Positions 36,107 through 64,000 of a DNA stretch of 64,000 bases are shown one piece after another. The notes below the pieces were generated by a model, which worked only from the letters and a program-made list of their open reading frames with translations, ran no database searches and was not told the DNA's origin. The position numbers and the translations under genes were made by a program. The stretch is from a virus (taxonomy: Duplodnaviria > Heunggongvirae > Uroviricota > Caudoviricetes): the IMG/VR virus record IMGVR_UViG_3300027710_001079, positions 64,833 to 128,832 of that record; one strand, given 5' to 3'. Each line of letters begins with the position of its first letter. The stretch's first letter is position 1.

Positions 36107-36454
36107 TTAAAAAATAACTCTATCTTTCATTGCTCGGTCTGAATAAATTTGTAGACCTTTTTCACGAATTAGGTCAGCACAGAATTGCGGTTCAGCTTCC
36201 CATTTAGCTCTCCAGAACTGTTCGTCAAGTTCTTTGCTACAATCAATAGCGTAAATTTCATAATGACGTTGCGAGTTAAATCTTGCCCGCATTGTTAGAT
36301 TACTAATTATATTGTTTAATGGGTTATGTTCTTTTTTACGCTCGGCTAGGATGTTAATGAGATTTCTTTTATCCATATCCTCGTATTGAGTAATAGGAAC
36401 AATAGCTTCTACACCGTTACAGTCCCAGCTGAATATAAATGCATTAGTTGTCAT
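36107..36454 (-). CDS. Hypothetical protein
   Basis: 115-aa ORF. Confidence 0.7.
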
Positions 36455-41458: not shown

Positions 41459-41811
41459 ACTATTAGTACTGCTACAATTACTAGATAAACTAGTTGGTGG
41501 GCCATTTGATCAAGTCCTAGATGATTCCAGAACTGAGGAGTGGTGATGTCTCTATTACCTTTATTCATTTTGGTCCAATCAATATGATAATGCAATACGA
41601 AATCAATAAATCCTAGTAAGACTGCCCAGCTTACTGGAGTGAATAAGAACAAGATAGCCGCAGTAGCAATTCCGTGTTTAAGGCTGTGCTTAATGCCCAG
41701 CCAATTAAGATAAATGCCTTTGTGTTTTACTTCTTCGTCTGTTTGATTAACAAAGTCAATATACCAATGTTTAATCTGAAACAATGCCAATATGATTAAT
41801 ATTTCGATCAT
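41455..41811 (-). CDS. DUF3307-like membrane protein
   Basis: KHWYIDF, HSLKHG, LHYHIDWTK and GLDQMAH His-rich motifs. Confidence 0.75.
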   Translation of the reverse strand: MIEILIILALFQIKHWYIDFVNQTDEEVKHKGIYLNWLGIKHSLKHGIATAAILFLFTPVSWAVLLGFIDFVLHYHIDWTKMNKGNRDITTPQFWNHLGLDQMAHQLVYLVIVAVLIV

Positions 41812-47154: not shown

Positions 47155-48093
47155 TTATGATAAAATGTTAACCCATTTGTCAATAACGTGCTGCCAGTCG
47201 TAACTTTTAGCATGTTCTTGGATTTCCAAGCATCGTTGTCTGTACTTGTTAGGGTTATCTTTATAATAACTTAAAATTTCCACAGTTTTTTCTAAGAATT
47301 CGTCTTCTGCTACGGGCACAGCATGTCCGCCTGCATCACCAATTCTCTGGGCCCAGTGTCCAACATTAGTACCGATTACTAGCTTGCCGGCCGCACCGCC
47401 CTCCATTACAGGAAGTCCAGCACCTTCTTCTGTACTAGCTGCGATAACAGCGTCTATGCCTTTGTAGAATCCCGGCATAGTGATAAAACTATTGTGATAT
47501 TGCTGTGCAACTCTAAACTCTAATCCGGCACGTTTTACTGCTTCTTCAACTAGCCAGCCACGCTTATGATACTTAGGCTGTGCTAGATCGCTAGCAACCA
47601 TATCTTGTGCAAACTCTTCTTTTCTGTGGAAGCTGCCTGTGTATCCTACAACTTTTAAATTGTCGTTAGGTGTGCTGTAAAAAGTATTATAGTTAATAGC
47701 CACAGGAGTTAGTTCAGCAGGCCGCTCGATACCTAGTTCTTTACTAAGATCAACTAGCCATTGGCTAACACAACCGTATCTACGGAAACGTTTAAAGTCT
47801 TCATATCCGTGATGATGAATCAGTTCAGTCATGTCTAATTTAGCATGACTGATAATAACACACTGTTCGGGTGCTACTGTAGCATAGTTATATCCTAAGA
47901 ATCTCCATCCGTGGGGAGTAGTTACAAAAATATCAGTTGTGGAATTTAATTCCAACATTTCTTCTCTAGTGTAACTTTTGTTCCAAGGAAGTAGTTGACA
48001 GTTAAATCCGTGTCCCCATAGATATTTGAACAGCTCGTAATGAACTGTTCCGAATGCCCAGTTAGGCTCAAAGTAAAAAACTACTCTTTTCAT
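47155..48093 (-). CDS. GT-B fold (GT4-like) glycosyltransferase
   Basis: [24 protein letters not shown] (E-x7-E) motif. Confidence 0.75.
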
Positions 48094-49247
48094 TTCTTGT
48101 CCATCGGTGGATAGTACTTACGCAACCAATCAAGGTTTTCTCGATCTGGATGATCCTGGTACCATCCTTTGCCGCTATGCACATCGTAGACCATCTGGAA
48201 GTATTCTTCATACATCGGTGCAACTCGTTCTAGGCTAAAGTTCTCACCAAACGCACGACACGCGGCCGGATCAATCTTATCGATGTTTTCAGCAGCCCAA
48301 ACAAACTGATCAAAGGTTCTGCAACGATATCCAGTAACTCCGTGTACATTATTTTCTGTAAATGATCCCCAGTCTGTTGTGATAGTAGGAGTACCACTTA
48401 ACAACATCTCTACTTGCACACCACCGAATGGTTCTGTGTACAGACTAGGAACAAATGCCCCTTTGGCACGACTCATTAATTTCTTACGAGTCTCTACATC
48501 TGCGTATCCCACAAACTCGACGTGGTCTGGAGTTTCTGCGTAACCCATTGATGCTAAGTTGTTTTGACCAGCCATGATTAATTTTGCACCAATCTTTCTA
48601 GTTACTTCGATTGCAAGGTGTGCTCCTTTGCCTTCATATACTCGCCCTAAGAACAAGAAGTAATCTTCTTTCTTTTCTGGCTCATAAGTAAAGTCTTCTA
48701 AGTCGAAGTAGTTAGGGACAACACCGTGATACCAATCTTGATTGCATGTTCCTACACTTTGTAATCCAAAGAAGGCATGCATAATAGCATAGCTTTCAAA
48801 GATCTTCCAACGTGCCCAATGACCGCCTGCATATCCAATACCCGGTTCAACAACAATTAAATCGTTGTGTGCATCGCATACTGCACGAACACCTGATCCC
48901 CAGAATGGTAGAATAAAATCTTTAGGTTGTTTACGTAGTCCAATTTCTCGAATAGCGTTTGCATAGAATGTTTGATATGCGTGATCGCCTGTATCAAACT
49001 TAAAGAAATTTTTACGCCAGTCGTAACTGCCGTAGGCAATTTCTAAATCTTTGTTTGTGGTAACAGTGACATGCTCGTCGCATACTAGGTCGCTGTCTTC
49101 ATGTCCATAGTGGATAACATAATGCCCACGCTCTTTCATCATCTTGCCGAATTTAACGACTTTCTGAGTATAAGCACAGGCATTATATTCTTTACTGGAT
49201 ACTGTGTGGGGCAAGCCCAATATGTGGAATCTGAATTTTTGGCTCAT
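48090..49247 (-). CDS. GT4-family glycosyltransferase
   Basis: [10 protein letters not shown] and [16 protein letters not shown]. Confidence 0.9.
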
Positions 49248-49259
49248 AATTTAATTGGT

Positions 49260-49335
49260 TGGTGCTGCCTGTCGGAATCGAACTGACGACCTTCGGATTA
49301 CAAAACCGGTGCTCTACCAACTGAGCTAAGGCAGC
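49260..49335 (-). tRNA. tRNA-Thr(UGU)
   Basis: 76 nt; GCTGCCT/AGGCAGC acceptor, encoded CCA, D arm GCTC/GAGC, TTCGATT T loop, anticodon TGT; weak anticodon stem. Confidence 0.9.
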
Positions 49336-49343
49336 GATGTTTT

Positions 49344-49388
49344 TATTTAAGTAACTACTATATTAGCGTTATTAGATCTGAATGTCAA
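49344..49388 (-). promoter_or_regulatory. Tandem sigma70 and late-type promoters for tRNA-Thr
   Basis: TTGACA (49388-49383), 17 nt, TAATAT (49365-49360); TAAATA at 49349-49344. Confidence 0.65.
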
Positions 49389-50023
49389 GTTTCTCTGATC
49401 TCTTTAAGTTTGCTCCAGTACTGGATAGTAAATCTATCATACTCTGGATTTCTGTCTTTTTTTACTACAGGAGTTACACAGTGGTATACTCTGCTAGGAA
49501 AGATAACTAATCTATTATTTTTAAATTCAATAGTTTTAAGAGGTTGTTTAGTTTCCCAATCTCCGAATACAAAATCTCCACCTGTAAATTTAGATGGATC
49601 TTTAGCAAACATATAGTTCATTGTGGCAGTAGGATTATAATCTCTATGCCAACTGTAATGATCCTCATGGGTATATTTGCTCATTAGCATCTGACTAGAA
49701 TCAGTATATAACATGCTGGTAAAGAGGGAATCATTTGCTTCAAGTAATATTTTCTTTACTTCGTCGGACCAAATTCTTTGTTCAAGATAAGTTGAGATTT
49801 GAAAACTATTTGGTCGTGAAGCGTATTGCTGGAACAGCCACATATTCTTACTGCTTTTTGACCCGGGACTAATGACAATACCCTGGTTACTATTAACCTT
49901 GCTAGTAACCATTCCGGGAATTAATCTACAAGCTTCATTAATAATCTGCAAATTGTACACCCACGGTACAAAATCATCTATCACAATATGAACAAATGGT
50001 TCTTTAAAAATTTCGTATTTCAT
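49385..50023 (-). CDS. Fe(II)/2-oxoglutarate oxygenase (prolyl-hydroxylase-like)
   Basis: WHRD...FTGGDF...IFPSRVYHCV...R. Confidence 0.85.
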   Translation of the reverse strand: MKYEIFKEPFVHIVIDDFVPWVYNLQIINEACRLIPGMVTSKVNSNQGIVISPGSKSSKNMWLFQQYASRPNSFQISTYLEQRIWSDEVKKILLEANDSLFTSMLYTDSSQMLMSKYTHEDHYSWHRDYNPTATMNYMFAKDPSKFTGGDFVFGDWETKQPLKTIEFKNNRLVIFPSRVYHCVTPVVKKDRNPEYDRFTIQYWSKLKEIRET

Positions 50024-50751
50024 TTAGGATACATGTATAACCAGATCATTGTGCTAGGTCTTGCTTCAACACACAATAACATTTTATCATAGTCATCTAA
50101 ATCGTCAATTAACGGCATATAGGGATTTTTATTCCCTTGCCTTATCAGTTTAATATTGTGAGTTTCTGCAAATCGTGCAACTAATTTATCAGTTAGACCA
50201 GGTCTATTACAGTCATGACTTTCAACCATAACTGAAGTTTTTGCTAACTCGGGCACCACTGTGAGATCAAGGATGTCTTCTTCTGCACCTTCGCAATCCA
50301 TAAAGATAAACGGATTGTCAGCGGTGGCAAGGAATGATCTATAGTTGCTTATAGTGCAATCTGTGCTGAATAGAATTTTGTTTACACCGTTAGCGGCAGC
50401 ATTTTCTCTTGCAATGTCTACAGCAGTTTTGTTTACATCGAACACTACAGTTTTTGTCTGTGTTCTTTTTGCTAGACCTATGCCATAGTAACCTTCAGCA
50501 CAACCTATGTTTAAGATTAAATCGTGCGGCTGATTAATAACTCGCTCAATGTCTTCAAACAATTCACACTCGTATAATCCTAGTAATTTACTAGCACAGT
50601 CGCCGTCGCCCCAGCTAAACTTGTGCAAGATTTTCATTGCTTGAAACGGTCCTTGGTATACGAATCCCTGTGTCCTTTGGTACACTAATTCTGTGAGTTC
50701 GGCTCTACGTGCCCATGAGGCTCTGATATAATTGTTTTTAACTTCTGACAT
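50020..50751 (-). CDS. SAM-dependent methyltransferase (FkbM-like)
   Basis: NIGCAEGYYG motif I; FMDCEGAE. Confidence 0.75.
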   Translation of the reverse strand: MSEVKNNYIRASWARRAELTELVYQRTQGFVYQGPFQAMKILHKFSWGDGDCASKLLGLYECELFEDIERVINQPHDLILNIGCAEGYYGIGLAKRTQTKTVVFDVNKTAVDIARENAAANGVNKILFSTDCTISNYRSFLATADNPFIFMDCEGAEEDILDLTVVPELAKTSVMVESHDCNRPGLTDKLVARFAETHNIKLIRQGNKNPYMPLIDDLDDYDKMLLCVEARPSTMIWLYMYPK

Positions 50752-50752
50752 T

Positions 50753-51448
50753 TTAAGAATTCTTTTTTATTAAGTTAATTAGTTCGGGTGCTGACAAACT
50801 GTCAAAGTCCAGGCCTATGTTCATTCGAATACCAGTGCTGAACTTATGTACACTATGCCATTCTAAATGATTAAACACATACCAATATCCTGGCTCTATT
50901 TGAGCACTGACCACATGTTCGATTTTATCTAAATCTGGTATTCTAGTAGTGTGAATAATTTCAAATGGTTCTTTTTCTCTGTACCATCTAGTCTCTTCTC
51001 CGTTACCTTCGAGTAGCATAAACAAAGAACTTTTTCGTTTATGGCCTTTATGTGGCGGTAGGATTTCTCCTCCGTGACTAATTTGAAATATAGGAACTGG
51101 CTCGCCGGGAGTGGGCTCTTTTAAAAACTCCGGAGTTAGTGAAAGGAATTCGGAAGTATCTTGTTCTGTAAGAAAATATTGAGTAAAGTTAATAACGTTA
51201 CTTTCTGTAAAGTATTCCTTGATTTGCCGTCCTCGGCGAATCAATTCTTTTGAATCTCGACTGCCTATTAAATTAAATGTAGCTCTCGGATTGTTTCTAG
51301 GGTCGTCATAGTTGTTTCTAAAAACAAGGTTATCAGTACTTGTCTTAACACGACCTAGCAGACTTTGACAAAAATCATCTGCAAATTTTAAATTTGTTTT
51401 GTATATGTATTTGTCGGCATCAACATCCGATATTATAGTTTTAATCAT
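50753..51448 (-). CDS. Cupin/2OG-oxygenase-like protein
   Basis: ILPPHKGH...WYVFNHLEWHSV...R double-stranded beta-helix pattern. Confidence 0.6.
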   Translation of the reverse strand: MIKTIISDVDADKYIYKTNLKFADDFCQSLLGRVKTSTDNLVFRNNYDDPRNNPRATFNLIGSRDSKELIRRGRQIKEYFTESNVINFTQYFLTEQDTSEFLSLTPEFLKEPTPGEPVPIFQISHGGEILPPHKGHKRKSSLFMLLEGNGEETRWYREKEPFEIIHTTRIPDLDKIEHVVSAQIEPGYWYVFNHLEWHSVHKFSTGIRMNIGLDFDSLSAPELINLIKKNS

Positions 51449-51462
51449 ACTTTACTAAAATT

Positions 51463-51563
51463 TGGTACGGTCGGTAGGCTTCGAACCTACAAGGGCAGTG
51501 TCTAGGACTGTGCCCGGTCCCCGCAGTGAACTTTGGGAGCTTTTCCAATTTGCTCACGACCGC
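51463..51563 (-). ncRNA. Atypical 101-nt tRNA-like RNA (class II/Leu-like scaffold, TCA at the anticodon position)
   Basis: GCGGTCG/CGACCGT acceptor + ACCA; D arm AGC-AAATTGGAAAA-GCT; T arm GTAGG-TTCGAAG-CCTAC; poorly paired anticodon arm; extra-long variable arm. Confidence 0.75.
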
Positions 51564-51565
51564 AA

Positions 51566-52360
51566 TTAATTATAACTTATTTTCTTCTCCGACGCAAGTC
51601 CTAGAAACATCAAAGTTTGGATAACATATCGACCTGGATCAAACTGCCACCATTCTTTTCCAATCTGCCAACTACCCGGAGCAGAGTGATGGTTATAGTG
51701 CCAGCCTTCACCGAATGTTAAGTACGACCACCACCAAACATTATGTGATTGATCTCGATAGTCAGTTGCAACCCGTGTTCCGAACATTGGGCTATGATCA
51801 ATCCAATTACTCAATCTAGAAGCCATTGTGTTAAAAAATACAGGGATAATGTAGAGAAATACTGCAATCATTGGATCAATTGCCACTAACACTGCTACTA
51901 CTAGTAAGACTATTAGCATATAGTACTCGTGCATAAATCTATGAACAGGGTCGTTTATAATATCTTTTACAGACCATTTGTTAAATTTTCCACCGTAGTC
52001 ACCAACGAACGCACCTATTGGGCCTAGTACTACTGGGCTGTGCGGATCACCGGGTTTGTCTGCAAATTTATGATGTGCTCTATGTACAAATACCCATCCC
52101 ACTGAGCTACCAGTACAGCCTAAATTTCCAAAGAAGCTAAACAAATATTCTAAGGGTTTCCAAAGTTGATACGATTTATGTGTCAACAATCTATGAAAAG
52201 TAACTGTAATACCGAGACAGGTAATTAAAAAATATCCAACTAAAGAAAGTAGCCAGTAGTTCCAACTAATAGGAGTTACTATTGCCCACACAAAAATACC
52301 AGCAGCGGCTAACTGCATTGCAATAAAAAACCACTCTCGTGGATAAAAATACTGTTTCAT
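51566..52360 (-). CDS. Membrane fatty-acid desaturase 1 (delta-9/DesC-like)
   Basis: His boxes HRLLTH, HRAHH and WHYNHH; start corrected to MKQYF. Confidence 0.9.
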   Translation of the reverse strand: MKQYFYPREWFFIAMQLAAAGIFVWAIVTPISWNYWLLSLVGYFLITCLGITVTFHRLLTHKSYQLWKPLEYLFSFFGNLGCTGSSVGWVFVHRAHHKFADKPGDPHSPVVLGPIGAFVGDYGGKFNKWSVKDIINDPVHRFMHEYYMLIVLLVVAVLVAIDPMIAVFLYIIPVFFNTMASRLSNWIDHSPMFGTRVATDYRDQSHNVWWWSYLTFGEGWHYNHHSAPGSWQIGKEWWQFDPGRYVIQTLMFLGLASEKKISYN

Positions 52361-53115
52361 TTTTTTACAATCCTTATCACGTAAGATATTAAATCTACTT
52401 CCCACCAATGTTCTTGCAAGTTCCATTTACTGGGATTTGTATGATGGTTATTGTGCCATCCTTCGCCCCATAGTAAAATTGCAAAAGGCCATAAATTTTT
52501 ACTTTCATCACGGTGCTGGTGGTTAGTATAACCGTGACTGTGTCCAAAATATGTAAAGCTGTTTAATGCAAGATGAGTCATTGCAAGTGGCACAGCCCAT
52601 GCAAAATAAAATAGCCAAGGACTTATTAAAAATAACAACCCTGCCCACCCTATTACTAAAATCTTATAATATTTGTTAATCCATAGATGATGGTAGGTAA
52701 AGAGATCTCTAATTAGATATCTTTTTAATTCTCCACCATAATTTAAAATGTGTGGGAAAAACACTCTCCAACCGTTGATATTAGGTGCATGAGGATCTTT
52801 TTCAGTATCGCTGTACGCATGATGTTCTCGATGAATGTGAACCCATCCTAAAATGCTTCCTCTACCTGCCTGGATAGCAAACCAACTGAACAGCCATTCT
52901 AATATAGGATATTTGAATTGAAAACTTTTATGGGTCCAATATCTATGCATCATCATGCTGACCCCTACTCCTGCATACAAAAAGTACCCAAGTAAGATAG
53001 TCAATGCTTCGGTAACTCCTATGTCGAAAATCCAAAAGCCGGCTACAGCAATCAATAGACTGATGATCTGTAAAAAGGATACGAATCCCGAGCTTGCTGC
53101 AAAGATATTTTTCAT
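52357..53115 (-). CDS. Membrane fatty-acid desaturase 2
   Basis: His boxes HRYWTH, HREHH and WHNNHH. Confidence 0.9.
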   Translation of the reverse strand: MKNIFAASSGFVSFLQIISLLIAVAGFWIFDIGVTEALTILLGYFLYAGVGVSMMMHRYWTHKSFQFKYPILEWLFSWFAIQAGRGSILGWVHIHREHHAYSDTEKDPHAPNINGWRVFFPHILNYGGELKRYLIRDLFTYHHLWINKYYKILVIGWAGLLFLISPWLFYFAWAVPLAMTHLALNSFTYFGHSHGYTNHQHRDESKNLWPFAILLWGEGWHNNHHTNPSKWNLQEHWWEVDLISYVIRIVKK

Positions 53116-53193
53116 ACCTATATTTATTAGGAGTTTTTTCCAAGAAAAAATTTAGCAGTTATATACCTACTAAATAAAATTTTAAAAGGATTC

Positions 53194-54561
53194 ATGATGG
53201 AAATTATCACAGCCTCTCTGCTTTTTATGCTGACAATGTTTGGTGTATTAATGTATGCAGGAAGAAATTGGAGTTCGAGCAATATGAGTTTTTTGTTTGC
53301 CAATAGATCGTTAAATTACATTCCCGCTGGCCTTGCAATCAACGCTCATTGGTTTTGGGCTATTGCATTATTTGTAGGACCAACAGTGGCGTATAATTGG
53401 GGCTGGATAGGTTTATTATGGTTTGCTATTCCTAATGCATTGAGTTTATTAGTAATGGCATTTATTGGGTCCAGGATACGTAACAACTACACAGACGGAT
53501 TTAGTTTAAGCGAGTACATCCAAGAAAATTTTAGTCCAAGACTTGCAAAATTATTTCAGTTAAAATTTGCATTAATTTCATTTGCAGGATTGTTATTGTC
53601 CTTTACCGCTATTGGCAAGCTATGGGCATTCTTAGGACTGGCAGCGTTTGTAGATCCTGTTTATGCAACACTGGTTGTGGGGCTTATTACATTAGGATTT
53701 ACTCTGCGTGGCGGTATAAGAAGTAGCATTTTTAGCGGTGCAACTATGACCCTCTTGTGGATTCTATTTTTTGGAGTCTCGGCATTCAGTGTGTTTACTT
53801 CAGATGTTTCGATTCTCGTAACAGGAAAGAATGCACTGGAAACTATTTGGAATGAAAAGTTTTTAACTAATTTTGCATTGGCATTTTTAGTTGCTATCGG
53901 CGTGGGTGCTACTAGTCACGGAATGATGTGGCAAAAGACATTCTCAATGCCTAAAGAAAATATTTGGCCTAGTTTTATAATTGCTTCAATAATATTTGTT
54001 CTAATGGTACTATCATTAGGAAGTTTATCACTATTCACATTTGCTTCCGGAACAGCAGTAAGTCATCCTGAATTATCTGCATTAGCTGGAATAGCAACAC
54101 TGTTTGGGGCAAGCGGCCTACTTGTATTTTCTATTCTGTTAATAGGTCAAACGTCTACTATCATGGATTCTGCAATCACCTACATGGCCAGTCTAAGTTC
54201 ACGAGAATGGGTAAAGAAGGACGATCCTAAGGTCAGTAAAATTGCTATGATTCTGTTTATAACTGCGGCATGGATTGTTTCATTTTTAAAGTTAGAAATC
54301 TGGACCATCTTTATGTTGATGGGAGCTATTAGAATAGTGATGTTTGCTACAATTTCTACTCATGCGTTAGGTTTAAAGATTTCAGAAGCAGCAAGTTTTT
54401 ATAGTTCTATAGTAGCAATTATTGGTGCAATTTATCTTTCTTATACTGCAAGAATTGATAAGCTCCCAATATATGATATGTATTCTGCATATTTTGCTAT
54501 CGGCTTACCTTTGTTAGCAATAGTCGGAAGCCACTTCTTTAACAAATTTAAAAGGCATTAA
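53194..54561 (+). CDS. Sodium:solute symporter (SSS family)
   Basis: About 12-13 TM helices; FLFANRSL, AHWFWA and GGIRSSI patterns; TAAATA at 53171-53176. Confidence 0.75.
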   Translation: MMEIITASLLFMLTMFGVLMYAGRNWSSSNMSFLFANRSLNYIPAGLAINAHWFWAIALFVGPTVAYNWGWIGLLWFAIPNALSLLVMAFIGSRIRNNYTDGFSLSEYIQENFSPRLAKLFQLKFALISFAGLLLSFTAIGKLWAFLGLAAFVDPVYATLVVGLITLGFTLRGGIRSSIFSGATMTLLWILFFGVSAFSVFTSDVSILVTGKNALETIWNEKFLTNFALAFLVAIGVGATSHGMMWQKTFSMPKENIWPSFIIASIIFVLMVLSLGSLSLFTFASGTAVSHPELSALAGIATLFGASGLLVFSILLIGQTSTIMDSAITYMASLSSREWVKKDDPKVSKIAMILFITAAWIVSFLKLEIWTIFMLMGAIRIVMFATISTHALGLKISEAASFYSSIVAIIGAIYLSYTARIDKLPIYDMYSAYFAIGLPLLAIVGSHFFNKFKRH

Positions 54562-55779: not shown

Positions 55780-57023
55780 ACATAGCTATATTTGGAAGCA
55801 ATCACTGTTTACATTTTTTCTCTCAGTATCTGGAAAAATATGAAAACGTTAATAATGTCTATCACTATTCTGCAGGACCCCTACATGTACCTACTGAAAA
55901 ATATCATCCTATAATTTTTAAAGAAACTTTAGAAGAATATTTAAATGAAGTTGATACGTTAAAAGAAAAAGAAATAGATTTAATCATACCGTTAACACTG
56001 CCTTTCCAATTATGGTCTAAGTTTCAAAATAAGATTAGAAGTACAGGAATCTCGGTATTGTCGCCAACTTCAGATCTTGCGATGTTAGAATGGTCTAAAA
56101 TTTACGGTAAAAAGTTTATGCAGTCAATTGGTGTACCGACTGCTAAACATAAGACATTGTTGTATGACGAGGTTATAGATAATTTTTTTACAATAGAACG
56201 TCCCTTTGTTTTAAAATTTGATCAGGATTTTAGATTTGGCAGACAGTCGATAGTTGTTACAGAAAATAACTTAAATGAAGTTTATACAAACTTTTTGGAT
56301 ACTGGTAAAACAAGGATGTCTGATCTGCTTAAAAAAGGTGATCATACTGATTACATAATAGAAGAATTTTTAGCAGGCCCTGAATATTCTTTGCATATTT
56401 TATGTAACGGAACTAATTGGTCATACTTAGGATCTTCAAGAGACTACAAAAAAGAGTTTAACAGTGACACTGGAAATAATGTGTGTAGCATGGGATGCTA
56501 TTCTGTAACTGATCCTATAAATGATCAAGCTGTTCAAATTGTTAACCAAGTACTAACAGCACTGGAAAATAACGGCACTCCTTATGTAGGGGTTTTATAT
56601 CTGGGAATGATAATACATAACGGAGTACACAAAGTACTAGAGATTAATACTCGCCCAGGTAATCCAGAATTTAATACGATATTGTCTATGATAGACGATA
56701 ACATAGTAGAATTATTTTTTAATTGCGTCAATAACAATGTAAAAAAATCTATTAGATTTAAATCAGGCAGTGCTGTTACTATACAACTGGTCCATAAAGA
56801 TTACATTTTAGAATATCGAGAAAACGTAAAATATCCTATATTGAAAGACATCCCACCTGACATAATTGTTAGTTACGGATCATTAGACCCGCACCTTCGA
56901 TATTGTAATCTTACTGCTACAGGAGAAACACCTCAGCTAGCTTCTGAAAAAATATCAGATTATTTAGATAAACAATATTTGGGCGATTTTAGATACAGGA
57001 CAGATATAGGTATTTTACCTTAA
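55776..57023 (+). CDS. Diverged PurD/GARS-like ATP-grasp ligase
   Basis: LEWSKIYGKKFM, IIEEFLAGPEYS, DTGNNVCSMGCYS, LEINTRPGNPE and YRTDIG follow the PurD layout. Confidence 0.8.
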   Translation: MNIAIFGSNHCLHFFSQYLEKYENVNNVYHYSAGPLHVPTEKYHPIIFKETLEEYLNEVDTLKEKEIDLIIPLTLPFQLWSKFQNKIRSTGISVLSPTSDLAMLEWSKIYGKKFMQSIGVPTAKHKTLLYDEVIDNFFTIERPFVLKFDQDFRFGRQSIVVTENNLNEVYTNFLDTGKTRMSDLLKKGDHTDYIIEEFLAGPEYSLHILCNGTNWSYLGSSRDYKKEFNSDTGNNVCSMGCYSVTDPINDQAVQIVNQVLTALENNGTPYVGVLYLGMIIHNGVHKVLEINTRPGNPEFNTILSMIDDNIVELFFNCVNNNVKKSIRFKSGSAVTIQLVHKDYILEYRENVKYPILKDIPPDIIVSYGSLDPHLRYCNLTATGETPQLASEKISDYLDKQYLGDFRYRTDIGILP

Positions 57024-58481
57024 AAGAGTTTCAAGATATTTCATTATTCTTGTAACTATTCTTGATCGTATTTCTTCTGAATATGTATTATTAGTTGAAG
57101 TTATAATTTTTCTTATTTCCGGCCAGGTGTAGTCAAGCCCTGCAAGTCCCACAGTATCGCCCCATCTCATAGTTGGTTTTTTGTTCTTTGATTCTAGATA
57201 AGAAATACTGTTCTTTGATATTTCAATAGCGTCAGAGTATGTCAATCCCATATTGTTAATCCAACCTTGCTCGTTAGTTGAGTAACCGTACTTTGTAGGG
57301 TTTTTCATAAACTCACTACTCCATGCAAAATTTTTAATAGTTGGATCTAAAAATAATGGATTTATATTTGCAGCATCTAGTTTGAATGCATCGCTACCTA
57401 CTATTTCAATCCATTCTTCTGCTGACTTTTTATCTTCGTAGGGTAGTCCTATCATAAAATTACCAATTGTAAAGACATCATCACCCCATATGTCTTTACA
57501 TTGTTGAAGAGTATCTATTATTTTTTCTCTAGAAAGTCCTTTTCCGATTGCTTTATTTCCTCGATCGTTTAGGCTTTCAACTCCAAATAATGCAACTTTT
57601 AATCCACTTTCTTTTAATAATGAGATTGTCTTTGGGTGTGCATGTAATAAATCTAACCTCAAATAAGTTACAAAATTAATTTTAAAAGGTAATTTTGAAT
57701 ACACATTATCATATAGTATTTCTAATTTTTCAACACTATCATTGTGTGTATCGTCTAAGTAGACGTAATTTGTTGTACGATATCTTTCGTAATTTTTTAA
57801 AAATTGATTTTTTAATATTTCAGTTTCTTTTAAGTAGTCTAATTTCTTTTTACCGTTTAACGGAAATGAACAAAAATTACACCTAAATATACAACCTCTA
57901 GATATTTCTATCGGCAATCCTTCTCGGTAATCAATAGCATCTGACTGGTGCCACGAAAATTTATCTGTACTAAAATTAAATGTAGACGCTGTAATATCGT
58001 CATTAACAATAACACACCCATCTTCTACTGTATATTTAAAAAATGGATTTTTATCCTCGCACCATTTAGTAAAATTAATAACTGATGTATCGGCATATCC
58101 TTCTATATAAGTATCAAACAACTCTCCGCTGTCTCTTTTAAATGCTTTTGCACCGCCAGATACAAACCGGCATTTAGATTTTTTTGAAGAAACTAAATTT
58201 TTAATTTTCTCAGTTTGTTCTTTTGTAAACAGTGTTTGGGAAGAAGCCATTGCAGGAGTAAGGAATGTAGTTGAAAATCCAATCCAAATTGTTCCTTCAT
58301 CAACATGCCGATCTAATATACTTAAAAATTTGTCAAACCCGATTTTTAAAATTTGAGGGAAATATTCAACAACTTGAACTGTGTAACCATTGTTCCTTAA
58401 TTGGTTTGCAATTTGATATGCTCCAATTGATCTAAAAGGGATTGAAAAACCCACGCCAGTGAAAATTATAATTTGTGCCAT
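57015..58481 (-). CDS. Cobalamin-binding-type (class B) radical SAM enzyme
   Basis: B12-binding-like N-terminus (IGAYQIA, IGFST, SGG); SRGCIFRCNFC, LDDT, FGVES and MIGLPYE. Confidence 0.85.
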   Translation of the reverse strand: MAQIIIFTGVGFSIPFRSIGAYQIANQLRNNGYTVQVVEYFPQILKIGFDKFLSILDRHVDEGTIWIGFSTTFLTPAMASSQTLFTKEQTEKIKNLVSSKKSKCRFVSGGAKAFKRDSGELFDTYIEGYADTSVINFTKWCEDKNPFFKYTVEDGCVIVNDDITASTFNFSTDKFSWHQSDAIDYREGLPIEISRGCIFRCNFCSFPLNGKKKLDYLKETEILKNQFLKNYERYRTTNYVYLDDTHNDSVEKLEILYDNVYSKLPFKINFVTYLRLDLLHAHPKTISLLKESGLKVALFGVESLNDRGNKAIGKGLSREKIIDTLQQCKDIWGDDVFTIGNFMIGLPYEDKKSAEEWIEIVGSDAFKLDAANINPLFLDPTIKNFAWSSEFMKNPTKYGYSTNEQGWINNMGLTYSDAIEISKNSISYLESKNKKPTMRWGDTVGLAGLDYTWPEIRKIITSTNNTYSEEIRSRIVTRIMKYLETLLR

Positions 58482-58486
58482 CGTCC

Positions 58487-58498
58487 TATTTATAAATA
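58487..58498. promoter_or_regulatory. Palindromic back-to-back late promoter TATTTATAAATA
   Basis: A TATAAATA octamer on each strand, 5-6 nt from the two divergent ATGs. Confidence 0.7.
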
Positions 58499-58504
58499 TG
58501 GGTT

Positions 58505-59401
58505 ATGCAGCCTATTAATTTTTATTACGAACTATCGCCAGAACAAAATCATTTTCCTGTTATATATGTTGATATTACTCATCGATGTAACATGGAGTGT
58601 GCTAATTGTTTTATTCCTAACAGAGATGTTCCAGATATGGATAAGGATAGACTTTATGATGTATTAAAACGATTACCCTTTAAAACTGAGATCAGAATGT
58701 TAGGAGGGGAACCAACTGTTCGAAAAGACATATTTGAAATCGTAGAAAAAATTAGAGAGCTAGGACACAGACCAAATATGCAGTCTAACGGTCTTATGCT
58801 TGCTAAACCAGGATATGCTAAAGACTTAGCCAAGGCAGGTATGCGTAGCATCTATATTAGTGTTAACGGTGCAGATGATAATGATGTTTACGAGACCATG
58901 GACGGAATGCGATGTGCTGAAAGAAAAATTGCAGCATGGCAAGCGTGTGTTGATGCTAAGATGAATGTTAATTTGGGGTGCATCATGCAAAAAGGCACTA
59001 ACGATCATATCCCAGCTAGACTATTTGAACTGTCAAAGACCATCGGTGGCAATCCTATTTTTAGATTTAGAAACGTTGGACAAATTGGAAGATACACATT
59101 AGAGCAAGATCAAAATTGGACATTTGAGGAAACTATAAACAATGTATGTGCAGTGTTTGGAAAAGACCCAGAATGGGCTAAGAATAGAAACACTATTGCG
59201 GGATTCACTGAGCCCAACATTATTTTCTTTCCGTTAGATGAAACTAAAAAATTAAAAACGCCTTGGGTAAAAATTACAAACTGGAGCCCCACAGATGGTA
59301 AAGTTCCTGATCCAGGCAGCAAGAGAAGAGGTCGATTAACTCAAAATTTTAAAATTGCTCCTCATTTTGAACATATCATTTTAAATGAAAATGTCTATTA
59401 A
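58505..59401 (+). CDS. Radical SAM enzyme (MoaA/PqqE-like core)
   Basis: CNMECANC, LGGEP, SNG and ISVNG. Confidence 0.9.
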   Translation: MQPINFYYELSPEQNHFPVIYVDITHRCNMECANCFIPNRDVPDMDKDRLYDVLKRLPFKTEIRMLGGEPTVRKDIFEIVEKIRELGHRPNMQSNGLMLAKPGYAKDLAKAGMRSIYISVNGADDNDVYETMDGMRCAERKIAAWQACVDAKMNVNLGCIMQKGTNDHIPARLFELSKTIGGNPIFRFRNVGQIGRYTLEQDQNWTFEETINNVCAVFGKDPEWAKNRNTIAGFTEPNIIFFPLDETKKLKTPWVKITNWSPTDGKVPDPGSKRRGRLTQNFKIAPHFEHIILNENVY

Positions 59402-60128
59402 ACCTCTTAGTACTCCGTGGAACGATTGTACAGACACCTTGTTACATTCTAAATCTCTTGACGAGTGGTACACAGATAAACCTAAATTAGGATACAATGT
59501 TTTTAAGTTGCCTAGTCAGTATTCTTTTAATCTCAAAGAAATGCAAGACCAAGTTTCTTCTCTTTTAGAAAAACAAAATACAATAAGCATTTCTAAAAAT
59601 GCCAAAGGTGAAAAATTCAATAGGTACAAGGGACTGGGATTTTTTTCTAGACCTAATTGTGCAACTCCGCTCGAGGATCATTTTACCAGAAGAGATGTTA
59701 AGCACGGTGTAACATATGCCGACGATCTGCATCTAAATGCGAATCTACCAGACTTGATAGAAAACGATTTTACAGAAACTACCTGTATAATGAACGAGTA
59801 TTTTAATAATATCTTTTCGTCTTTTAAATCAAAGATTACAAAGGCTAGCTTATTAGAATTGCGGCCTATGGGATGGTTAGGATCGCATGTTGATTTTCCT
59901 TACTATAAAACAGTAAGGTTACATACTAGCATATTTGGTAATGAGGGTGCTTGGTACGAAGTTGAAGGAGAAAAATTTCAACTACCTCAAGACGGGCATT
60001 GGTATTTTATAGATACTGGAAAGTATCATTCTGTTTGGAACCACGGACCAAACAGTAGAATCACCTTAAATGTAAATTTAGAAATTCAAAGTGATCCTAG
60101 AGAATTAGCATTACTGGGTCTTTTGTAA
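59385..60128 (+). CDS. Asp/Asn beta-hydroxylase-like Fe(II)/2OG oxygenase
   Basis: GSHVD...RLHTSI...GHWYFIDTGKYHSVWN...R. Confidence 0.75.
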   Translation: MKMSIKPLSTPWNDCTDTLLHSKSLDEWYTDKPKLGYNVFKLPSQYSFNLKEMQDQVSSLLEKQNTISISKNAKGEKFNRYKGLGFFSRPNCATPLEDHFTRRDVKHGVTYADDLHLNANLPDLIENDFTETTCIMNEYFNNIFSSFKSKITKASLLELRPMGWLGSHVDFPYYKTVRLHTSIFGNEGAWYEVEGEKFQLPQDGHWYFIDTGKYHSVWNHGPNSRITLNVNLEIQSDPRELALLGLL

Positions 60129-60353
60129 AGACTTAATGTAGTCAATAACCATCTGCACTGTTTCAATAGTTTCGGCAACCTCCTCGTCTATTTCTAATCC
60201 AAATTCATCTTCAACAGACAGTAACATTTCTACAGTATCTAAGCTGTCGCCACCTAAGTCTTCAACAAACTTCATGTTGGGCTGTATATTTTTAATATCA
60301 ATCCCTAGCTGTTTACTGATAATTTTTTTTACTTTTAGTTCTACTTCATCCAT
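60111..60353 (-). CDS. acpP: Acyl carrier protein
   Basis: DLGGDSLDTVE phosphopantetheine-attachment Ser motif; EDEFGLEI. Confidence 0.95.
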   Translation of the reverse strand: MDEVELKVKKIISKQLGIDIKNIQPNMKFVEDLGGDSLDTVEMLLSVEDEFGLEIDEEVAETIETVQMVIDYIKSLQKTQ

Positions 60354-61116
60354 GATCTTTCCTTAATGCTATTAATTTAATTAGCTGTGCTGACATATCA
60401 AATTCCCACCATTTGATTTTTTGATTCCATTGTTGTGGATTTTTATGATGGTTGTTATGCCATTCTCCAACAATGTACCCTACAAAAATATTGTTGAAAG
60501 AGCCATCGCCCGTATTGAAATTTCTATAATTTAATATTGCTTCTCGATGATTTAAAATATTAATCGATATATAAGCTAACCACAGCAACAGTACACTTAC
60601 ATTATATACAAGTGCTAACCTAAAGTCAATGAATCCAAGTATTACATAAAATAATAGAATAATTCCTAGATAGTAGTTGTGTGCTATCATTATCCATTTA
60701 TCGTTTAGAGATTCCGCAGTCCGTATCGGAATCTTTTTAAAGTTCCAATCAAACATTGCTATTTTAAAAAAACTTAGATACTTGCCGTGTGGATCTTTTT
60801 CTGTATCTGAAAATATATGATGTGCTCTGTGCGACATAGCATATGCGTAAGGTGAACCTGCACATGCCAGCGGCGATGCAATACTCATGATAACATGCCA
60901 AAATCTAGTTGTTTTAAATGAGTTATGTGAAAAATATTTGTGTAATGCAATATTATGCAGTACCTGCATAAAAGCATAAAACAACAAGGCTGAATACAGT
61001 ATAAAAGAGTATTGCCCTGTTTGGACAAAATATCCCAATGCTGCTGTGCCTAATAATACTTGTAAGATAATAGTGCGTGTTGTAGTTGCAGCACTGCCCC
61101 GAAACATTTTTTTCAT
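60346..61116 (-). CDS. Membrane fatty-acid desaturase 3
   Basis: His boxes HKYFSH, HRAHH and WHNNHH. Confidence 0.9.
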   Translation of the reverse strand: MKKMFRGSAATTTRTIILQVLLGTAALGYFVQTGQYSFILYSALLFYAFMQVLHNIALHKYFSHNSFKTTRFWHVIMSIASPLACAGSPYAYAMSHRAHHIFSDTEKDPHGKYLSFFKIAMFDWNFKKIPIRTAESLNDKWIMIAHNYYLGIILLFYVILGFIDFRLALVYNVSVLLLWLAYISINILNHREAILNYRNFNTGDGSFNNIFVGYIVGEWHNNHHKNPQQWNQKIKWWEFDMSAQLIKLIALRKDHG

Positions 61117-61907
61117 TAGCGTTTTCTAATAAGAGGAATAAACCATTTTGAAATATCAATTTCTCCTGGCTTATGTGCATAGTCATATTCCCAGGGCCGT
61201 GCGTGATGATTGTTGTGCAGGCCGAGACCTAATGTAAACCAATTGAACCAAGGAACATTTTGACTTGTGTCTCCGCAATCTGGGTAGTTTTGATAACTGC
61301 CTTTATGCGGAATATGTCCCCATGTATTAATTAGACCAGATAAATGGAACTCTATTACCGTTGCTGCACTTATAGAAAACACAGCTAGTCTCCAATCAAT
61401 TAAGGCTAGCAATAAAAAAGTACCCCAATATATAGAATAATAACGTTGATGATAAAACTTTAATACAGGATCTTTAATCATGTCTTTGACTAACCACATT
61501 TTTTTAAAATCCCATTTATGATTTAACCAAAGGAAATAACTCCACCAAAACCCTCGAGTAGGACTGTGTGGGTCTTTGTCAGTGTCAGAATATTTGTGAT
61601 GCAACCCTTGATGTAACACTCTCAACATTAACGGACTACCTGTGCCTGATAGCATTCCTAAGTATGCTCCTAGTTTAGCAATCCACGGATATGTTTCAAA
61701 ACTTTGATGGCAGTAATATTTGTGAATAAAAATTCCAAATCCGATATGTCCAAATAGGAACCATGAAGGGTAGATTAGCAATAACCACCATAGTGATGTA
61801 TCTCCTGTTCCTAAAGACATTAATCCTAGTAAGAATATAATGTGTTGTGGGATATACACTCTTCTAAAATTCTCTCCAAGTTCGTTCCAATAATTTAATA
61901 GTTTCAT
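61116..61907 (-). CDS. Membrane fatty-acid desaturase 4
   Basis: His boxes HKYYCH, HQGLHH and LHNNHH. Confidence 0.9.
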   Translation of the reverse strand: MKLLNYWNELGENFRRVYIPQHIIFLLGLMSLGTGDTSLWWLLLIYPSWFLFGHIGFGIFIHKYYCHQSFETYPWIAKLGAYLGMLSGTGSPLMLRVLHQGLHHKYSDTDKDPHSPTRGFWWSYFLWLNHKWDFKKMWLVKDMIKDPVLKFYHQRYYSIYWGTFLLLALIDWRLAVFSISAATVIEFHLSGLINTWGHIPHKGSYQNYPDCGDTSQNVPWFNWFTLGLGLHNNHHARPWEYDYAHKPGEIDISKWFIPLIRKR

Positions 61908-61945
61908 TAAAATATTTATCTGTATTCCAGGCCACTAAATAAAAG

Positions 61946-62515
61946 ATGCTTCCGGTAAACTCTAACCCCCACGATGATTTAAGCACAGAAGAGCTTCAAA
62001 GATTTTCTAAAGTTTTAATTATAGAAAATGCTATCAGCGATAAAGTATGTGATGAATTGGCCATATTAGGAACTTGTCAAGTATTTCCTGCGGTTAAAAA
62101 ACACACATATCAAAATAATATGAATCTAGAACATTGTTTTCTTGAAAAAGATCATATGATTCATAGTCTAATATCGCACCACTGGGAGAGAGCAGCGGAC
62201 GAATTCAACTTTGACATTTCTTTTTTAGAGCCGCACAAATTGCAAACCTATGCAAGTGGCGGATATTTTAATTCTCACATCGACAATTATCACGGATTAA
62301 ACTTACCTGTTGATAGGAAATTATCAGCAACTATACAACTAACTCACGAAACACATTACGAAGGCGGTGATCTCATAATCGGAAATACCTCAATGCCTAG
62401 GACAAAAGGAACTATGATTATTTTTCCAAGTTTCTATCCTCATAAAGTAACAGAAGTTACAAAGGGAAGGCGATGGTGTGTAGTTGCATGGGCATGGGGA
62501 CCTTATTGGAAATAA
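61946..62515 (+). CDS. Fe(II)/2OG oxygenase (PKHD/prolyl-4-hydroxylase-like)
   Basis: SHID...KLSATIQL...YEGGDL...FPSFYPHKV...GRR. Confidence 0.9.
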   Translation: MLPVNSNPHDDLSTEELQRFSKVLIIENAISDKVCDELAILGTCQVFPAVKKHTYQNNMNLEHCFLEKDHMIHSLISHHWERAADEFNFDISFLEPHKLQTYASGGYFNSHIDNYHGLNLPVDRKLSATIQLTHETHYEGGDLIIGNTSMPRTKGTMIIFPSFYPHKVTEVTKGRRWCVVAWAWGPYWK

Positions 62516-62516
62516 T

Positions 62517-63020
62517 ATGTATAATAGATTTTTTTGTAAAGCATTAAAAGATTTTGATCAAGATTGGTTATCTCAGATAGCATCATCAACGGAAAAAATA
62601 TGGTGGACTGCAAAAAATAATTCTGACGGTAGCTTAACATTTGTAAAAAATAAACCCAATGCTCAGTTTTACATGGCCAAACTACAGCATTTTCCTAATA
62701 TTGTTGATAAAATTTTAGAACAATATCCAGATGCTATGATTAAGAATAGTTATGTTACTAAATGTTTTCCGGGGTATCATATGGTGCCGCATATTGATCC
62801 TAATAGAACAACAGCTATCATTATTCCATTAGGCGATAATAAAGGCAAGATAAGTTTTTATTTTAAAAAATTTAAATTATTCACTCACACTTATAAATCG
62901 CCTACTCTTACAAGAGTGAATATTTTGCATAGTGCGGAGAACAATAGCGATCAAATCAGATATTCTGTTACATTAGAAGTTCCAGGCAGTTACTGGACTA
63001 ATGTAATTAAGTATCAATAA
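62517..63020 (+). CDS. Cupin/2OG-oxygenase-like protein
   Basis: MVPHID...ILHSAEN...RYS; start corrected to MYNRF. Confidence 0.65.
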   Translation: MYNRFFCKALKDFDQDWLSQIASSTEKIWWTAKNNSDGSLTFVKNKPNAQFYMAKLQHFPNIVDKILEQYPDAMIKNSYVTKCFPGYHMVPHIDPNRTTAIIIPLGDNKGKISFYFKKFKLFTHTYKSPTLTRVNILHSAENNSDQIRYSVTLEVPGSYWTNVIKYQ

Positions 63021-63627
63021 CCGTTCCTCTATAGTCAGTGTAATTCTGACCTTTTAAGATTTCTACTCGGTGCTCTTGTTTTAATACAAACATCCTTACT
63101 ACTACATCGGACCACTCGCACACATCTCTAAATATGTCAAAGGCCTCTATATTTGTAAGTTGGCCTCGAGGTGCAACACTTTCGTCAAACCAAGAATATC
63201 GTCTTGCCATCGGACTATGTTTTTTTATTATCTTATTTCGTATATTGTGAAGACTCTCAGGTGCAGTCATCCAAAATTTAAAATAGCCCTTAGACTCCAT
63301 TCTGGATATCATTAACTCTAACGCAGGCACCATCATGGGTGCAGTCTTACTAAAATGATTTGTGCTTTCCAATACCTTGGTTAACCCAATATACCAGCCA
63401 CCTATTCTCGGTAATTCAAACCCTACATACATACACAAAGGAGAGTCGTTTTCATCGAACACCATTGAAATATGAGTAATTCCCTTTTGTATTCTTTCTT
63501 TTAATATTGCAATCTTTTTATCCAATTGCTCGTCAGTTAGCTCTACTCTAACTGATCTTCTATCTTTTGAAAATAGTGTTTTTATTAAATGTACTTCGTC
63601 CGCCGTGATAAATCTAGTAGTATGCAT
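63007..63627 (-). CDS. Hypothetical protein, possibly GNAT-like
   Basis: 206-aa ORF; alpha/beta pattern loosely GNAT-like; TAAATA 6 nt upstream. Confidence 0.55.
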   Translation of the reverse strand: MHTTRFITADEVHLIKTLFSKDRRSVRVELTDEQLDKKIAILKERIQKGITHISMVFDENDSPLCMYVGFELPRIGGWYIGLTKVLESTNHFSKTAPMMVPALELMISRMESKGYFKFWMTAPESLHNIRNKIIKKHSPMARRYSWFDESVAPRGQLTNIEAFDIFRDVCEWSDVVVRMFVLKQEHRVEILKGQNYTDYRGTVIDT

Positions 63628-63679
63628 AATCTTTATTTAGTGGCCAGGTTTAAGGATAAATAGTATTAGGAGAATCTAT

Positions 63680-64000
63680 ATGCCAATTACAGTTACATTT
63701 CATGCCCAAAGAAATAATCTTGATCATGAATTCTTTTGGGAGTCAACTGACCCTGAAATTCTTGAAATTACAACTATGGTCAACGAACTAGCAAACTCTA
63801 GTGACATTGTACATACATTTAATAAGTCGGAAGATGGTCTGAGTGCAGAAAGTAGTTTCTATCTGTTAAACTACGATTATTGGATGGCGTTTGTTGGATT
63901 AATTCGATACAGTTCAAATAGCGATTCTTTAGGAAAACGAGATTTGTATTTTAAAAATGCTGGACACACATTGACATTTCGAGTTACTGAGCAGGACACT
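63680..64000 (+). CDS. Hypothetical protein (runs off the window edge; not in track)
   Basis: MPITVTFHAQRNNLDHEFFWES... after an AGGAG SD; TAAATA at 63657-63662. Confidence 0.7.
   Translation, partial: MPITVTFHAQRNNLDHEFFWESTDPEILEITTMVNELANSSDIVHTFNKSEDGLSAESSFYLLNYDYWMAFVGLIRYSSNSDSLGKRDLYFKNAGHTLTFRVTEQDT

Follow-up and report, generated by a model that had tools for sequence, protein, structure and literature searches.

A 64,000-nucleotide stretch of DNA, referred to here as the window, spans bases 64833-128832 of the 192.8-kb IMG/VR virus record IMGVR_UViG_3300027710_001079 and carries an island of enzyme genes from position 47155 to position 63627. The phage context is T4-like and the source is uncultured and freshwater. 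As the record is ~55% complete according to CheckV, the full phage genome is probably ~350 kb. The preliminary description of this DNA had read the island as one late-expressed pathway that makes or remodels an acyl-based metabolite, or decorates virion or host-surface structures. The pattern of co-occurrence, followed locus by locus, instead indicates a mosaic, in which a single conserved core is accompanied by one or two satellite modules and by several neighbours unrelated to it. The core, located at 57.0-63.6 kb, has about an even chance of being a real functional module that tailors fatty-acyl chains, either on a phage acyl carrier protein (ACP) or on host membrane lipid. The same balanced confidence is attached to the parts of this reading that concern the surroundings. 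The stretch would be the AT-rich outer part of a hypervariable accessory region that a T4-like freshwater phage carries behind its tail-fibre genes; the cassettes would have been shuffled and exchanged independently, each under its own T4-type late promoter; and a GT4-type glycosyltransferase pair with GalE, a methyltransferase and PKHD-type 2-oxoglutarate (2OG) oxygenase genes would be unrelated neighbours of the core.

The genes of the 57.0-63.6 kb block are as follows, with positions counted along the window unless the record is named:

57015-58481, minus strand: class-B-like radical S-adenosylmethionine (SAM) enzyme, core (Pfam Radical_SAM)
58505-59401, plus strand: MoaA/Tes/TrsS-like radical SAM enzyme of 298 amino acids, the core marker (Pfam Radical_SAM)
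59385-60128, plus strand: Asp/Asn beta-hydroxylase, an Fe/2OG oxygenase of the LpxO/OlsC family, core (PF05118, Asp_Arg_Hydrox)
60111-60353, minus strand: AcpP-type ACP with a GGDSL motif, core (TIGR00517, full length, 93.4 bits against an equivalog cut-off of 70.45)
60346-61116, minus strand: desaturase B (Pfam FA_desaturase)
61116-61907, minus strand: desaturase A, core (Pfam FA_desaturase, 7e-19), behind a TAAATA box at 61913
61946-62515, plus strand: PKHD/YbiX-like Fe/2OG oxygenase (2OG-FeII_Oxy_3, 3e-14)
62484-63020, plus strand: Fe/2OG oxygenase-fold protein with no Pfam family, semi-core (HxD...H...R residues; fold model)
63007-63627, minus strand: GNAT-fold acyltransferase-type protein, core (fold model), behind a box at 63634

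Gene families were checked with Pfam and NCBIfam, and Pfam-negative open reading frames (ORFs) by motifs, Atlas structural matches and fold models. Every island protein was compared against ~170 related loci, consisting of 7 with desaturase A, 80 with the 298-residue radical SAM enzyme and 80 with the PP-loop protein of a satellite module, together with annotated metagenome contigs. Desaturase A, the ACP and the 298-residue radical SAM enzyme are found together in all seven desaturase A loci, and the same trio is present in every radical-SAM-anchored locus of at least 57% identity that extends far enough. The GNAT-fold protein, the LpxO-like hydroxylase and the 62484-63020 oxygenase accompany the trio in most of the loci with close orthologues. 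Down to 47% identity, a desaturase adjoins the 298-residue radical SAM gene in every locus that extends far enough. The core occurs in three gene orders, the first being the convergent arrangement of the window. The second consists of co-directional radical SAM, desaturase, ACP and GNAT genes, without the hydroxylase. The third runs desaturase, hydroxylase, radical SAM, followed in two contigs by a class-B-like radical SAM gene and a Rieske gene. An acyl-directed function, as first proposed for the island, is plausible because the desaturase/ACP sub-block is co-inherited in at least 15 other phage contigs; the proposal did not hold for the 16.5 kb as one cluster.

The desaturases are of the SCD/DesC type. 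All five paralogues, the fifth of which resides outside the window, share the histidine boxes HRxxxH, HRxHH and HNNHH without variation, in the SCD spacing and in the DPH and GEGxHNxHH contexts. A desaturase profile aligns almost end to end with mouse SCD1 (4YMK; E 4e-28), box against box, and PF00487 scores above its cut-off. The paralogues are mutually 28-34% identical, and their orthologues elsewhere, at 46-91% identity, are in different contigs. Orthologues of desaturase A (58-87% identical) are found in 27 protein clusters and in at least 15 contigs; desaturase B has an orthologue (56%) in the closest relative, L006, only. Both are translationally coupled to the ACP, and the overlapping start and stop codons present in the core point to co-translation of its genes. 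The ACP is the sole PP-binding gene of the whole record. Its best matches in the PDB are bacterial AcpP proteins, it is about half identical to gammaproteobacterial AcpP across 76 residues, and the sequence GGDSLDTVE is invariant in 10 orthologues.

The two radical SAM enzymes differ in their closest families. By sequence, the PDB entries closest to the 298-residue protein are those of MoaA and of the archaeal tetraether synthase (7TOL). The 57015-58481 protein has the CxxxCxxC radical SAM core and no PDB sequence match, and it is a paralogue of a 470-residue radical SAM enzyme past the window, with an N-terminal domain common to both. The preliminary description had named two radical SAM enzymes, one of class B. 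Pfam confirms both; as to the class, the best NCBIfam matches of the 57015-58481 protein are all B12-binding radical SAM families, mostly over the radical SAM core, and no Pfam B12-binding domain was detected. A class-B-like gene also comes after the 298-residue one in loci L042 and L043.

The LpxO-like hydroxylase has orthologues of 56-71% identity in relatives. It belongs to the same PF05118 family as the lipid acyl-chain 2-hydroxylases LpxO and OlsC, the nearest solved structure, Cpz10 (7V4F), is that of a small-molecule beta-hydroxylase, and its adjacency to lipid enzymes fits a lipid substrate. However, the match spans the catalytic core only (profile positions 55-154 of 157), and there is no NCBIfam equivalog. 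In the 62484-63020 oxygenase, the HxD, H and R residues are invariant, and the model, with a predicted local distance difference test score (pLDDT) of 81, is a double-stranded beta-helix like those of YcfD, AspH and Cpz10. This gene is beside the GNAT gene in five relatives. The 61946-62515 oxygenase has one orthologue, in L008.

The GNAT gene is located directly before or after desaturase A and the ACP in relatives. Its model (pLDDT 88.7) yields Foldseek and VIA matches to GNATs with Z scores of up to 14.5 and a root-mean-square deviation of 2.7 over 154 residues. The Q/RxxGxG/A signature for coenzyme A (CoA) binding after strand 4 was not visible in the alignment of ten orthologues. In a wide structural search with this model, acetyl-CoA enzymes came first (Z 14.5) and the acyl-ACP enzyme FeeM ranked 49th (Z 11.6). 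A model of the GNAT/ACP complex reached an ipSAE of 0.46 against 0.01 for the best control, a weak pass; the runs share at least 46% of contacts and the partner pLDDT is at least 76. Among 80 solved complexes 58 reach the passing mark, as do 2 among 110 mismatched pairs, yet passes at an ipSAE of 0.60 or below comprise just 7 of the 80 solved complexes and both of the passing mismatches. A pass in this range is more often wrong than right, unless the pairing is likely beforehand.

The core also has a counterpart in bacteria. A scan of one genome per prokaryote species recovered 15 relatives of the 298-residue radical SAM enzyme, of which 10 are in Bdellovibrionales/Pseudobdellovibrionaceae metagenome-assembled genomes (MAGs) on contigs of up to 1.9 Mb. 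A desaturase directly adjoins the radical SAM gene in nine of these ten loci, on contigs of up to 587 kb, with an LpxO-like gene in front in four. One of the Bdellovibrionales loci (L188) has, on the same strand, two LpxO-like (AspH-family) genes, a FA_hydroxylase-family gene and a B12-binding radical SAM gene. As hydroxylase, desaturase and radical SAM enzyme are found here without an ACP, the comparison points to this trio as the oldest unit, among lipid-type membrane oxygenases.

This conservation bears on whether there is a pathway at all. The region could merely collect individually useful or neutral redox accessory genes, as the hyperplastic regions of cyanomyoviruses do. Mosaic content and variable copy numbers would suit such a collection, and so would the G+C content, which drops from ~0.40 in the rest of the window to 0.32-0.35 across 54-64 kb; 2OG oxygenases and AspH-like genes are, moreover, common in this phage group (PMC7029224). 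This explanation is nonetheless held to be rather unlikely, since the core set is kept through three gene orders and down to 47% radical SAM identity, the oldest unit is an operon in bacterial chromosomes, and the overlapping codons indicate co-translation.

Desaturase and radical SAM genes are paired in other settings as well. Two marine metagenome contigs (L021 and L022) have a tandem desaturase pair that includes a very abundant marine desaturase, present in 172 collection blocks. Around the pair are four or five radical SAM genes (one with SPASM), a FA_hydroxylase-family gene and an NMO-type oxidoreductase. These contigs would be a marine counterpart of the pairing. A 33-kb contig binned as Crocinitomicaceae (L199) has two desaturase and radical SAM pairs, of the class-B-like and 298-residue types, along with homologues of the GNAT and of a 303-residue protein encoded past the window; by its appearance, it is phage DNA that was assigned to a bacterial MAG.

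The preliminary description had anticipated that, with no ketosynthase, acyl-AMP ligase or thioesterase in the window, the pathway would rely on host fatty-acid synthesis or on genes outside it. This was borne out by one gene elsewhere in the record:

record 178621-179847, minus strand: FabF-like beta-ketoacyl-ACP synthase, full length (TIGR03150, 276 bits, under the equivalog cut-off)

The gene is ~50 kb downstream, flanked by ClpS/Hsp20 on one side and by a heme oxygenase and two bilin reductases on the other. Both related records with 4-5 desaturases have it as well. A housekeeping AcpP-type ACP together with a FabF-like ketosynthase suggests service by host AcpS and host fatty-acid synthesis. 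We infer all functional steps of the core as follows. The phage ACP would be activated by host AcpS, and acyl chains would be loaded onto it by host fatty-acid synthesis, aided by the phage FabF-like ketosynthase. The membrane desaturase or desaturases, the hydroxylase and the radical SAM enzymes would then functionalise unactivated C-H positions, with the chain on the ACP or in a membrane lipid, introducing a double bond, a hydroxyl, a methyl or a C-C link. The GNAT-fold protein may finally hand the tailored acyl group to an amine acceptor.

Several points weigh against such a module. Below 47% identity, 46 of the 80 radical SAM loci have no desaturase within 10 kb. No ACP was seen in the Bdellovibrionales operons, and the substrate of the oldest unit may therefore be membrane lipid rather than acyl-ACP. 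SCD/DesC-type desaturases are known to use acyl-CoA or acyl-lipid substrates, and we know of none that uses acyl-ACP. The structural models match the GNAT-fold protein to acetyl-CoA enzymes at least as well as to FeeM. AspH-family and PKHD-type oxygenases also hydroxylate proteins. Finally, searches of the ~55%-complete record returned no phosphopantetheinyl transferase, no AMP-binding enzyme (PF00501, E ≤0.1) such as an acyl-AMP ligase, no PlsC-type acyltransferase, no 2Fe-2S ferredoxin (Fer2) and no rubredoxin.

The amine acceptor of the last step may be supplied by a putative operon for uptake and two ATP-dependent amide-forming enzymes, which directly precedes the core:

53194-54561, plus strand: sodium:solute symporter (SSS) family transporter (Atlas structural match)
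54562-55779, plus strand: PP-loop ATP pyrophosphatase-type protein, Asn-synthase/QueC-like (SGGSDS motif; Atlas match)
55776-57023, plus strand: PurD-like ATP-grasp ligase (GARS_A, 5e-27)

These are the transporter, the PP-loop enzyme and the PurD-like ligase of the preliminary description, and each assignment withstood checking. The first ORF has no match in Pfam itself and a TM-score of 0.92 to Atlas clusters that are 100% PF00474, in keeping with the LeuT-type fold of the SSS family. In the PP-loop protein, SGGSDS occupies residues 80-85, in a Rossmann-like domain, and is invariant across four orthologues, and the Atlas neighbours of the model are Asn-synthase/QueC-type clusters (TM-score 0.50-0.56). 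An alignment-based search found 358 viral-contig relatives, indicating a phage-wide family, whereas a single-sequence search of viral contigs found none. The PurD-like ligase scores 158 bits with TIGR00877 against a cut-off of 288, despite an end-to-end alignment, and is not a PurD equivalog; its PDB matches to PurD are at ~1e-27. Orthologues of the PP-loop gene adjoin PurD-like genes in four contigs, an SSS gene in two (L104 and L105, where a copy 50% identical to that of the window is immediately upstream) and parts of a TctABC transporter in two more. In several arrangements the PP-loop gene is no more than 10 kb from the core, and often only a few kb away. From these neighbourhoods, the operon is best described as a second recurrent module, separate from the core. 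The nearest named Atlas clusters of the transporter carry the automatic label "pantothenate permease"; the prosthetic group of ACPs is made from pantothenate.

Two membrane desaturases translationally coupled to an ACP recall the thiotemplated cassettes JamABC and cay/pgn, and an ACP and desaturase triad is required for bacterial polyynes (PMC9828172). Desaturases A and B with the ACP could, by this analogy, make an alkyne or polyyne fatty acid. The likeness lies in membrane desaturases encoded with a dedicated carrier protein, to which the idea of ACP-bound desaturation applies (PMC9828172). However, both the desaturase subfamily and the type of ACP are different here. The desaturases are of the SCD/DesC type with HNNHH as the third box, while those of cay/pgn are JamB-like or delta-12-like with HxxHH/QxxHH, and the ACP is of the housekeeping AcpP type, while polyyne ACPs form a separate clade (PMC9828172). 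Neither a fatty acyl-AMP ligase nor a rubredoxin was found in the ~55%-complete record. No thioesterase was identified either, thioesterase families not having been searched directly, and a hydrolase of the dienelactone-hydrolase (DLH) family is encoded at 36451-37221. In addition, desaturase B is absent from all relatives but one, leaving a single desaturase conserved with the ACP. A polyyne-type product is therefore regarded as very improbable, and the sequence features indicate that the core is not a Jam/polyyne-type cassette.

Phage desaturases have been described before. The delta-9 lipid desaturases of cyanophages (vFAD; Roitman et al. 2018) are single genes (PMC5776448). They resemble those of the island in being phage-borne "first" desaturases of the DesC/SCD type, with the same three histidine boxes and a position in the variable region of T4-like phages (PMC5776448). 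The difference is that five deeply diverged paralogues (28-34%) are present here, one of them fixed in an operon alongside genes for the ACP, GNAT-fold protein, hydroxylase and radical SAM enzymes. A tblastn search with desaturase A (E ≤1e-5) found no cultured cyanophage; the only cultured match was Pelagibacter phage Mosig EXVC030M, at 30% identity. In Mosig, an AspH-like gene precedes the desaturase, with three MoaA-like radical SAM genes, a GNAT and TauD nearby. Zaragoza-Solas et al. 2020 (PMC7029224) reported a stearoyl-CoA desaturase and fabF from freshwater pelagimyophages. The host recognition clusters of pelagimyophages and cyanomyophages are similar to the island in that they are beside tail fibres, are mosaic and contain glycosyltransferases, radical SAM cassettes and AspH-family genes; however, no ACP-centred conserved module, multiple desaturases or link to Bdellovibrionales were described there (PMC7029224). 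The role proposed for those clusters, a change of the host surface, was tied to the glycosyltransferases (PMC7029224).

The island is just downstream of tail-fibre genes, which occupy 15-30 kb of the window. Three genes are of note between the tail fibres and the island:

35457-36077: ClpP
36451-37221: alpha/beta hydrolase of the DLH family
41808-42812: GalE, scoring above the equivalog cut-off

GalE and the two GT4 genes may form a sugar module. Two of the tail-fibre proteins (963 and 846 residues; 15134-20562) contain collagen-like G-X-Y runs of up to 35 triplets, which account for a local G+C peak of 0.49-0.50; prolines are scarce in these runs.

Given this position, the oxygenases and glycosyltransferases might instead decorate a protein, namely the collagen-like fibres, or host lipopolysaccharide in order to block superinfection, with the desaturases being independent membrane-fluidity genes. 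The closeness of fibres rich in G-X-Y runs, of GalE and of the two GT4 genes speaks for decoration, as does the occurrence of protein hydroxylases among the AspH and PKHD families. The hypervariable host recognition clusters of pelagimyophages, with their glycosyltransferases and radical SAM cassettes, have been read in this way (PMC7029224), and the AspH-like gene and desaturase of Mosig are near sugar-modifying genes and tail fibres. However, in both phages and Bdellovibrionales the LpxO-like gene keeps company with desaturase and radical SAM genes and not with glycosyltransferases or fibres. An ACP in the operon would have no role in protein hydroxylation, and the few prolines of the G-X-Y runs mean that prolyl hydroxylation of collagen type is kept only within this explanation. 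Decoration is accordingly judged distinctly unlikely.

The peripheral part of the island, at 47-53 kb, contains the following genes:

47155-48093, minus strand: GT4-type glycosyltransferase a (Pfam Glyco_trans_1_4 and Glycos_transf_1)
48090-49247, minus strand: GT4-type glycosyltransferase b (Pfam Glycos_transf_1, 2e-17)
49260-49335, minus strand: tRNA-Thr(TGT), found by ARAGORN, the first element of the glycosyltransferase cassette
49385-50023, minus strand: PKHD/YbiX-like Fe/2OG oxygenase (Pfam 2OG-FeII_Oxy_3, 1.7e-11; NCBIfam PRK05467)
50020-50751, minus strand: SAM-dependent methyltransferase (Pfam MTS and Methyltransf_25)
50753-51448, minus strand: ORF without a family (no Pfam, NCBIfam or PHROG match)
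51566-52426, minus strand: desaturase D, SCD/DesC type (Pfam FA_desaturase; histidine boxes)
52357-53115, minus strand: desaturase C (Pfam FA_desaturase), which heads a minus-strand cassette behind a box at 53121

The four desaturases, the ACP, the methyltransferase and the two GT4 enzymes of the preliminary description were all recovered by Pfam and NCBIfam. Five Fe/2OG or cupin oxygenases had been counted, of which four are supported by Pfam or by fold, and the fifth, the ORF at 50753-51448, has no support in any tool. A 94%-identical copy of this ORF is present in two related contigs, and a gap of 117 nt (51449-51565), in which ARAGORN calls no tRNA, separates it from desaturase D. The true start of desaturase D is likely an internal ATG near 52360. 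Its orthologues in other phage contigs are 68-91% identical, and desaturase C has an orthologue of 54% identity in locus L017. The tRNA gene begins 8 nt behind a TAAATA box (49344-49349) and appears to be co-transcribed with protein-coding late genes.

The limits first set for the island were too narrow. The GNAT gene at 63007-63627 was missing from the original list, and position 63627 is not the end of the enzyme run, which continues for ~6 kb past the window:

record 128816-134814: two ORFs without a family, a Rieske oxygenase, the 303-residue protein, a GNAT, two more ORFs without a family, and the 470-residue class-B-like radical SAM enzyme

The 303-residue protein is conserved, with orthologues in four related loci. 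A DUF2828/DUF7788 protein comes after the 470-residue radical SAM enzyme, and the fifth desaturase is another 10 kb downstream of the end of the island. Farther along, record 156531-160017 holds an operon that by its genes looks like a deoxy-sugar or keto-acid module. It encodes an RfbH-like dehydrase, which scores above the cut-off in NCBIfam, an enzyme resembling aspartate aminotransferase, and a thiamine pyrophosphate enzyme that is acetolactate-synthase-like and represented by its N-terminal half. A sphingolipid pathway, with the GNAT as ceramide synthase alongside the ACP and hydroxylases, was considered and dropped, as this aspartate-aminotransferase-like enzyme is the sole class I/II aminotransferase of the record; it adjoins the RfbH-like gene and is not of the serine palmitoyltransferase type.

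The layout of the island agrees with the small cassettes of alternating orientation, headed by TAAATA boxes, that had first been noticed. The strands switch eight times, giving at least eight short cassettes, each headed by such a box. Intergenic DNA amounts to 370 of 16,846 bases (2.2%), and 9 of the 15 boxes fall within it (binomial P ~5e-12), each facing the first gene of a cassette. Across the window TAAATA is underrepresented (33 observed versus 84 expected). An outward-facing pair of boxes is present in each of the divergent gaps at 53116-53193, 58482-58504, 61908-61945 and 63628-63679. In T4-type late promoters, a TATAAATA box immediately precedes the point where transcription of a late gene begins. 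The palindrome TATTTATAAATA at 58487-58498, between the radical SAM genes, reads as a T4-type late box on either strand. This is the only occurrence of the full octamer TATAAATA; it is the shorter TAAATA that heads every cassette. Five of the boxes end 4-6 nt short of a start codon and leave no space for a Shine-Dalgarno site, suggesting that these late mRNAs are leaderless or near-leaderless.

Near-identical DNA is contained in 20 public sequencing runs from 15 studies, mostly of lake water and with no RNA run listed among them, and a 20.8-kb contig from a separate lake study is colinear with 50393-64000 at ~99% identity. These show that the gene arrangement is no artefact and is stably maintained in nature. 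The stretch is fully covered by contigs from four DNA runs. Contig joints and loose ends at 46347/56966, 52363/59376, 51463 and 62008-62869 were not accepted as population variants, owing to short sides or single low-depth contigs.

It remains to consider whether the 16.5 kb in full, or 23 kb with the extension, could be one biosynthetic cluster with a single acyl-based product that is glycosylated, exported or attached to a surface. The tight packing of the genes, the same late-type box on all cassettes and an arrangement that is stable in a second lake population would be expected of such a cluster, and desaturases, ACP, radical SAM, Rieske, GNAT, PP-loop and transporter genes recur near each other in related phages. 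However, shared late boxes are expected for any T4-like late gene. The synteny comparison proposed in the preliminary description gave a divided result: the core recurs across related contigs, but the GT4 pair, the methyltransferase and the 2OG gene at 49385-50023 have no homologue in the ~170 related loci. For part of the island, the nearest neighbours do differ, which had been named as evidence against a common pathway. The closest DNA relative of GT4 b is a glycosyltransferase of the cyanophage Synechococcus phage S-CAM7 (75% nucleotide identity), the order of the cassettes is shuffled, with gene order and content differing in each relative, and related phage records have anywhere between 1 and 5 desaturases. 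A single cluster is for these reasons considered quite improbable.

A literature search found no published description of the conserved core. A more far-reaching proposal is that giant T4-like phages of fresh water possess a lipid-editing line of their own, made up of a viral AcpP, a FabF-like enzyme, as many as five desaturases, an LpxO-type hydroxylase and radical SAM enzymes of two kinds. In this line the GNAT-fold enzyme would join a multiply modified chain to an imported, ATP-activated amine and yield a new N-acyl lipid or signal, the chain being specific to the virocell (unsaturated, hydroxylated, and methylated or cross-linked). This is put forward tentatively, as rather unlikely. If true, two kinds of predators of Gram-negative cells, phages and the Bdellovibrionales with their chain-editing trio, would share a tool for rewriting envelope lipids.

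The core itself is small (6.6 kb, seven or eight genes), widespread in lakes and testable by expression. It would offer enzymes of uncharacterised chemistry, in that a radical SAM enzyme is paired with an SCD-type desaturase. Phage lipid genes have so far been known as single desaturases. If the fatty-acyl tailoring function is correct, a conserved module built around a carrier protein, in which desaturation and hydroxylation are joined by radical chemistry, would show that late in infection large phages remodel the lipids of the host or produce a compound resembling a lipid.

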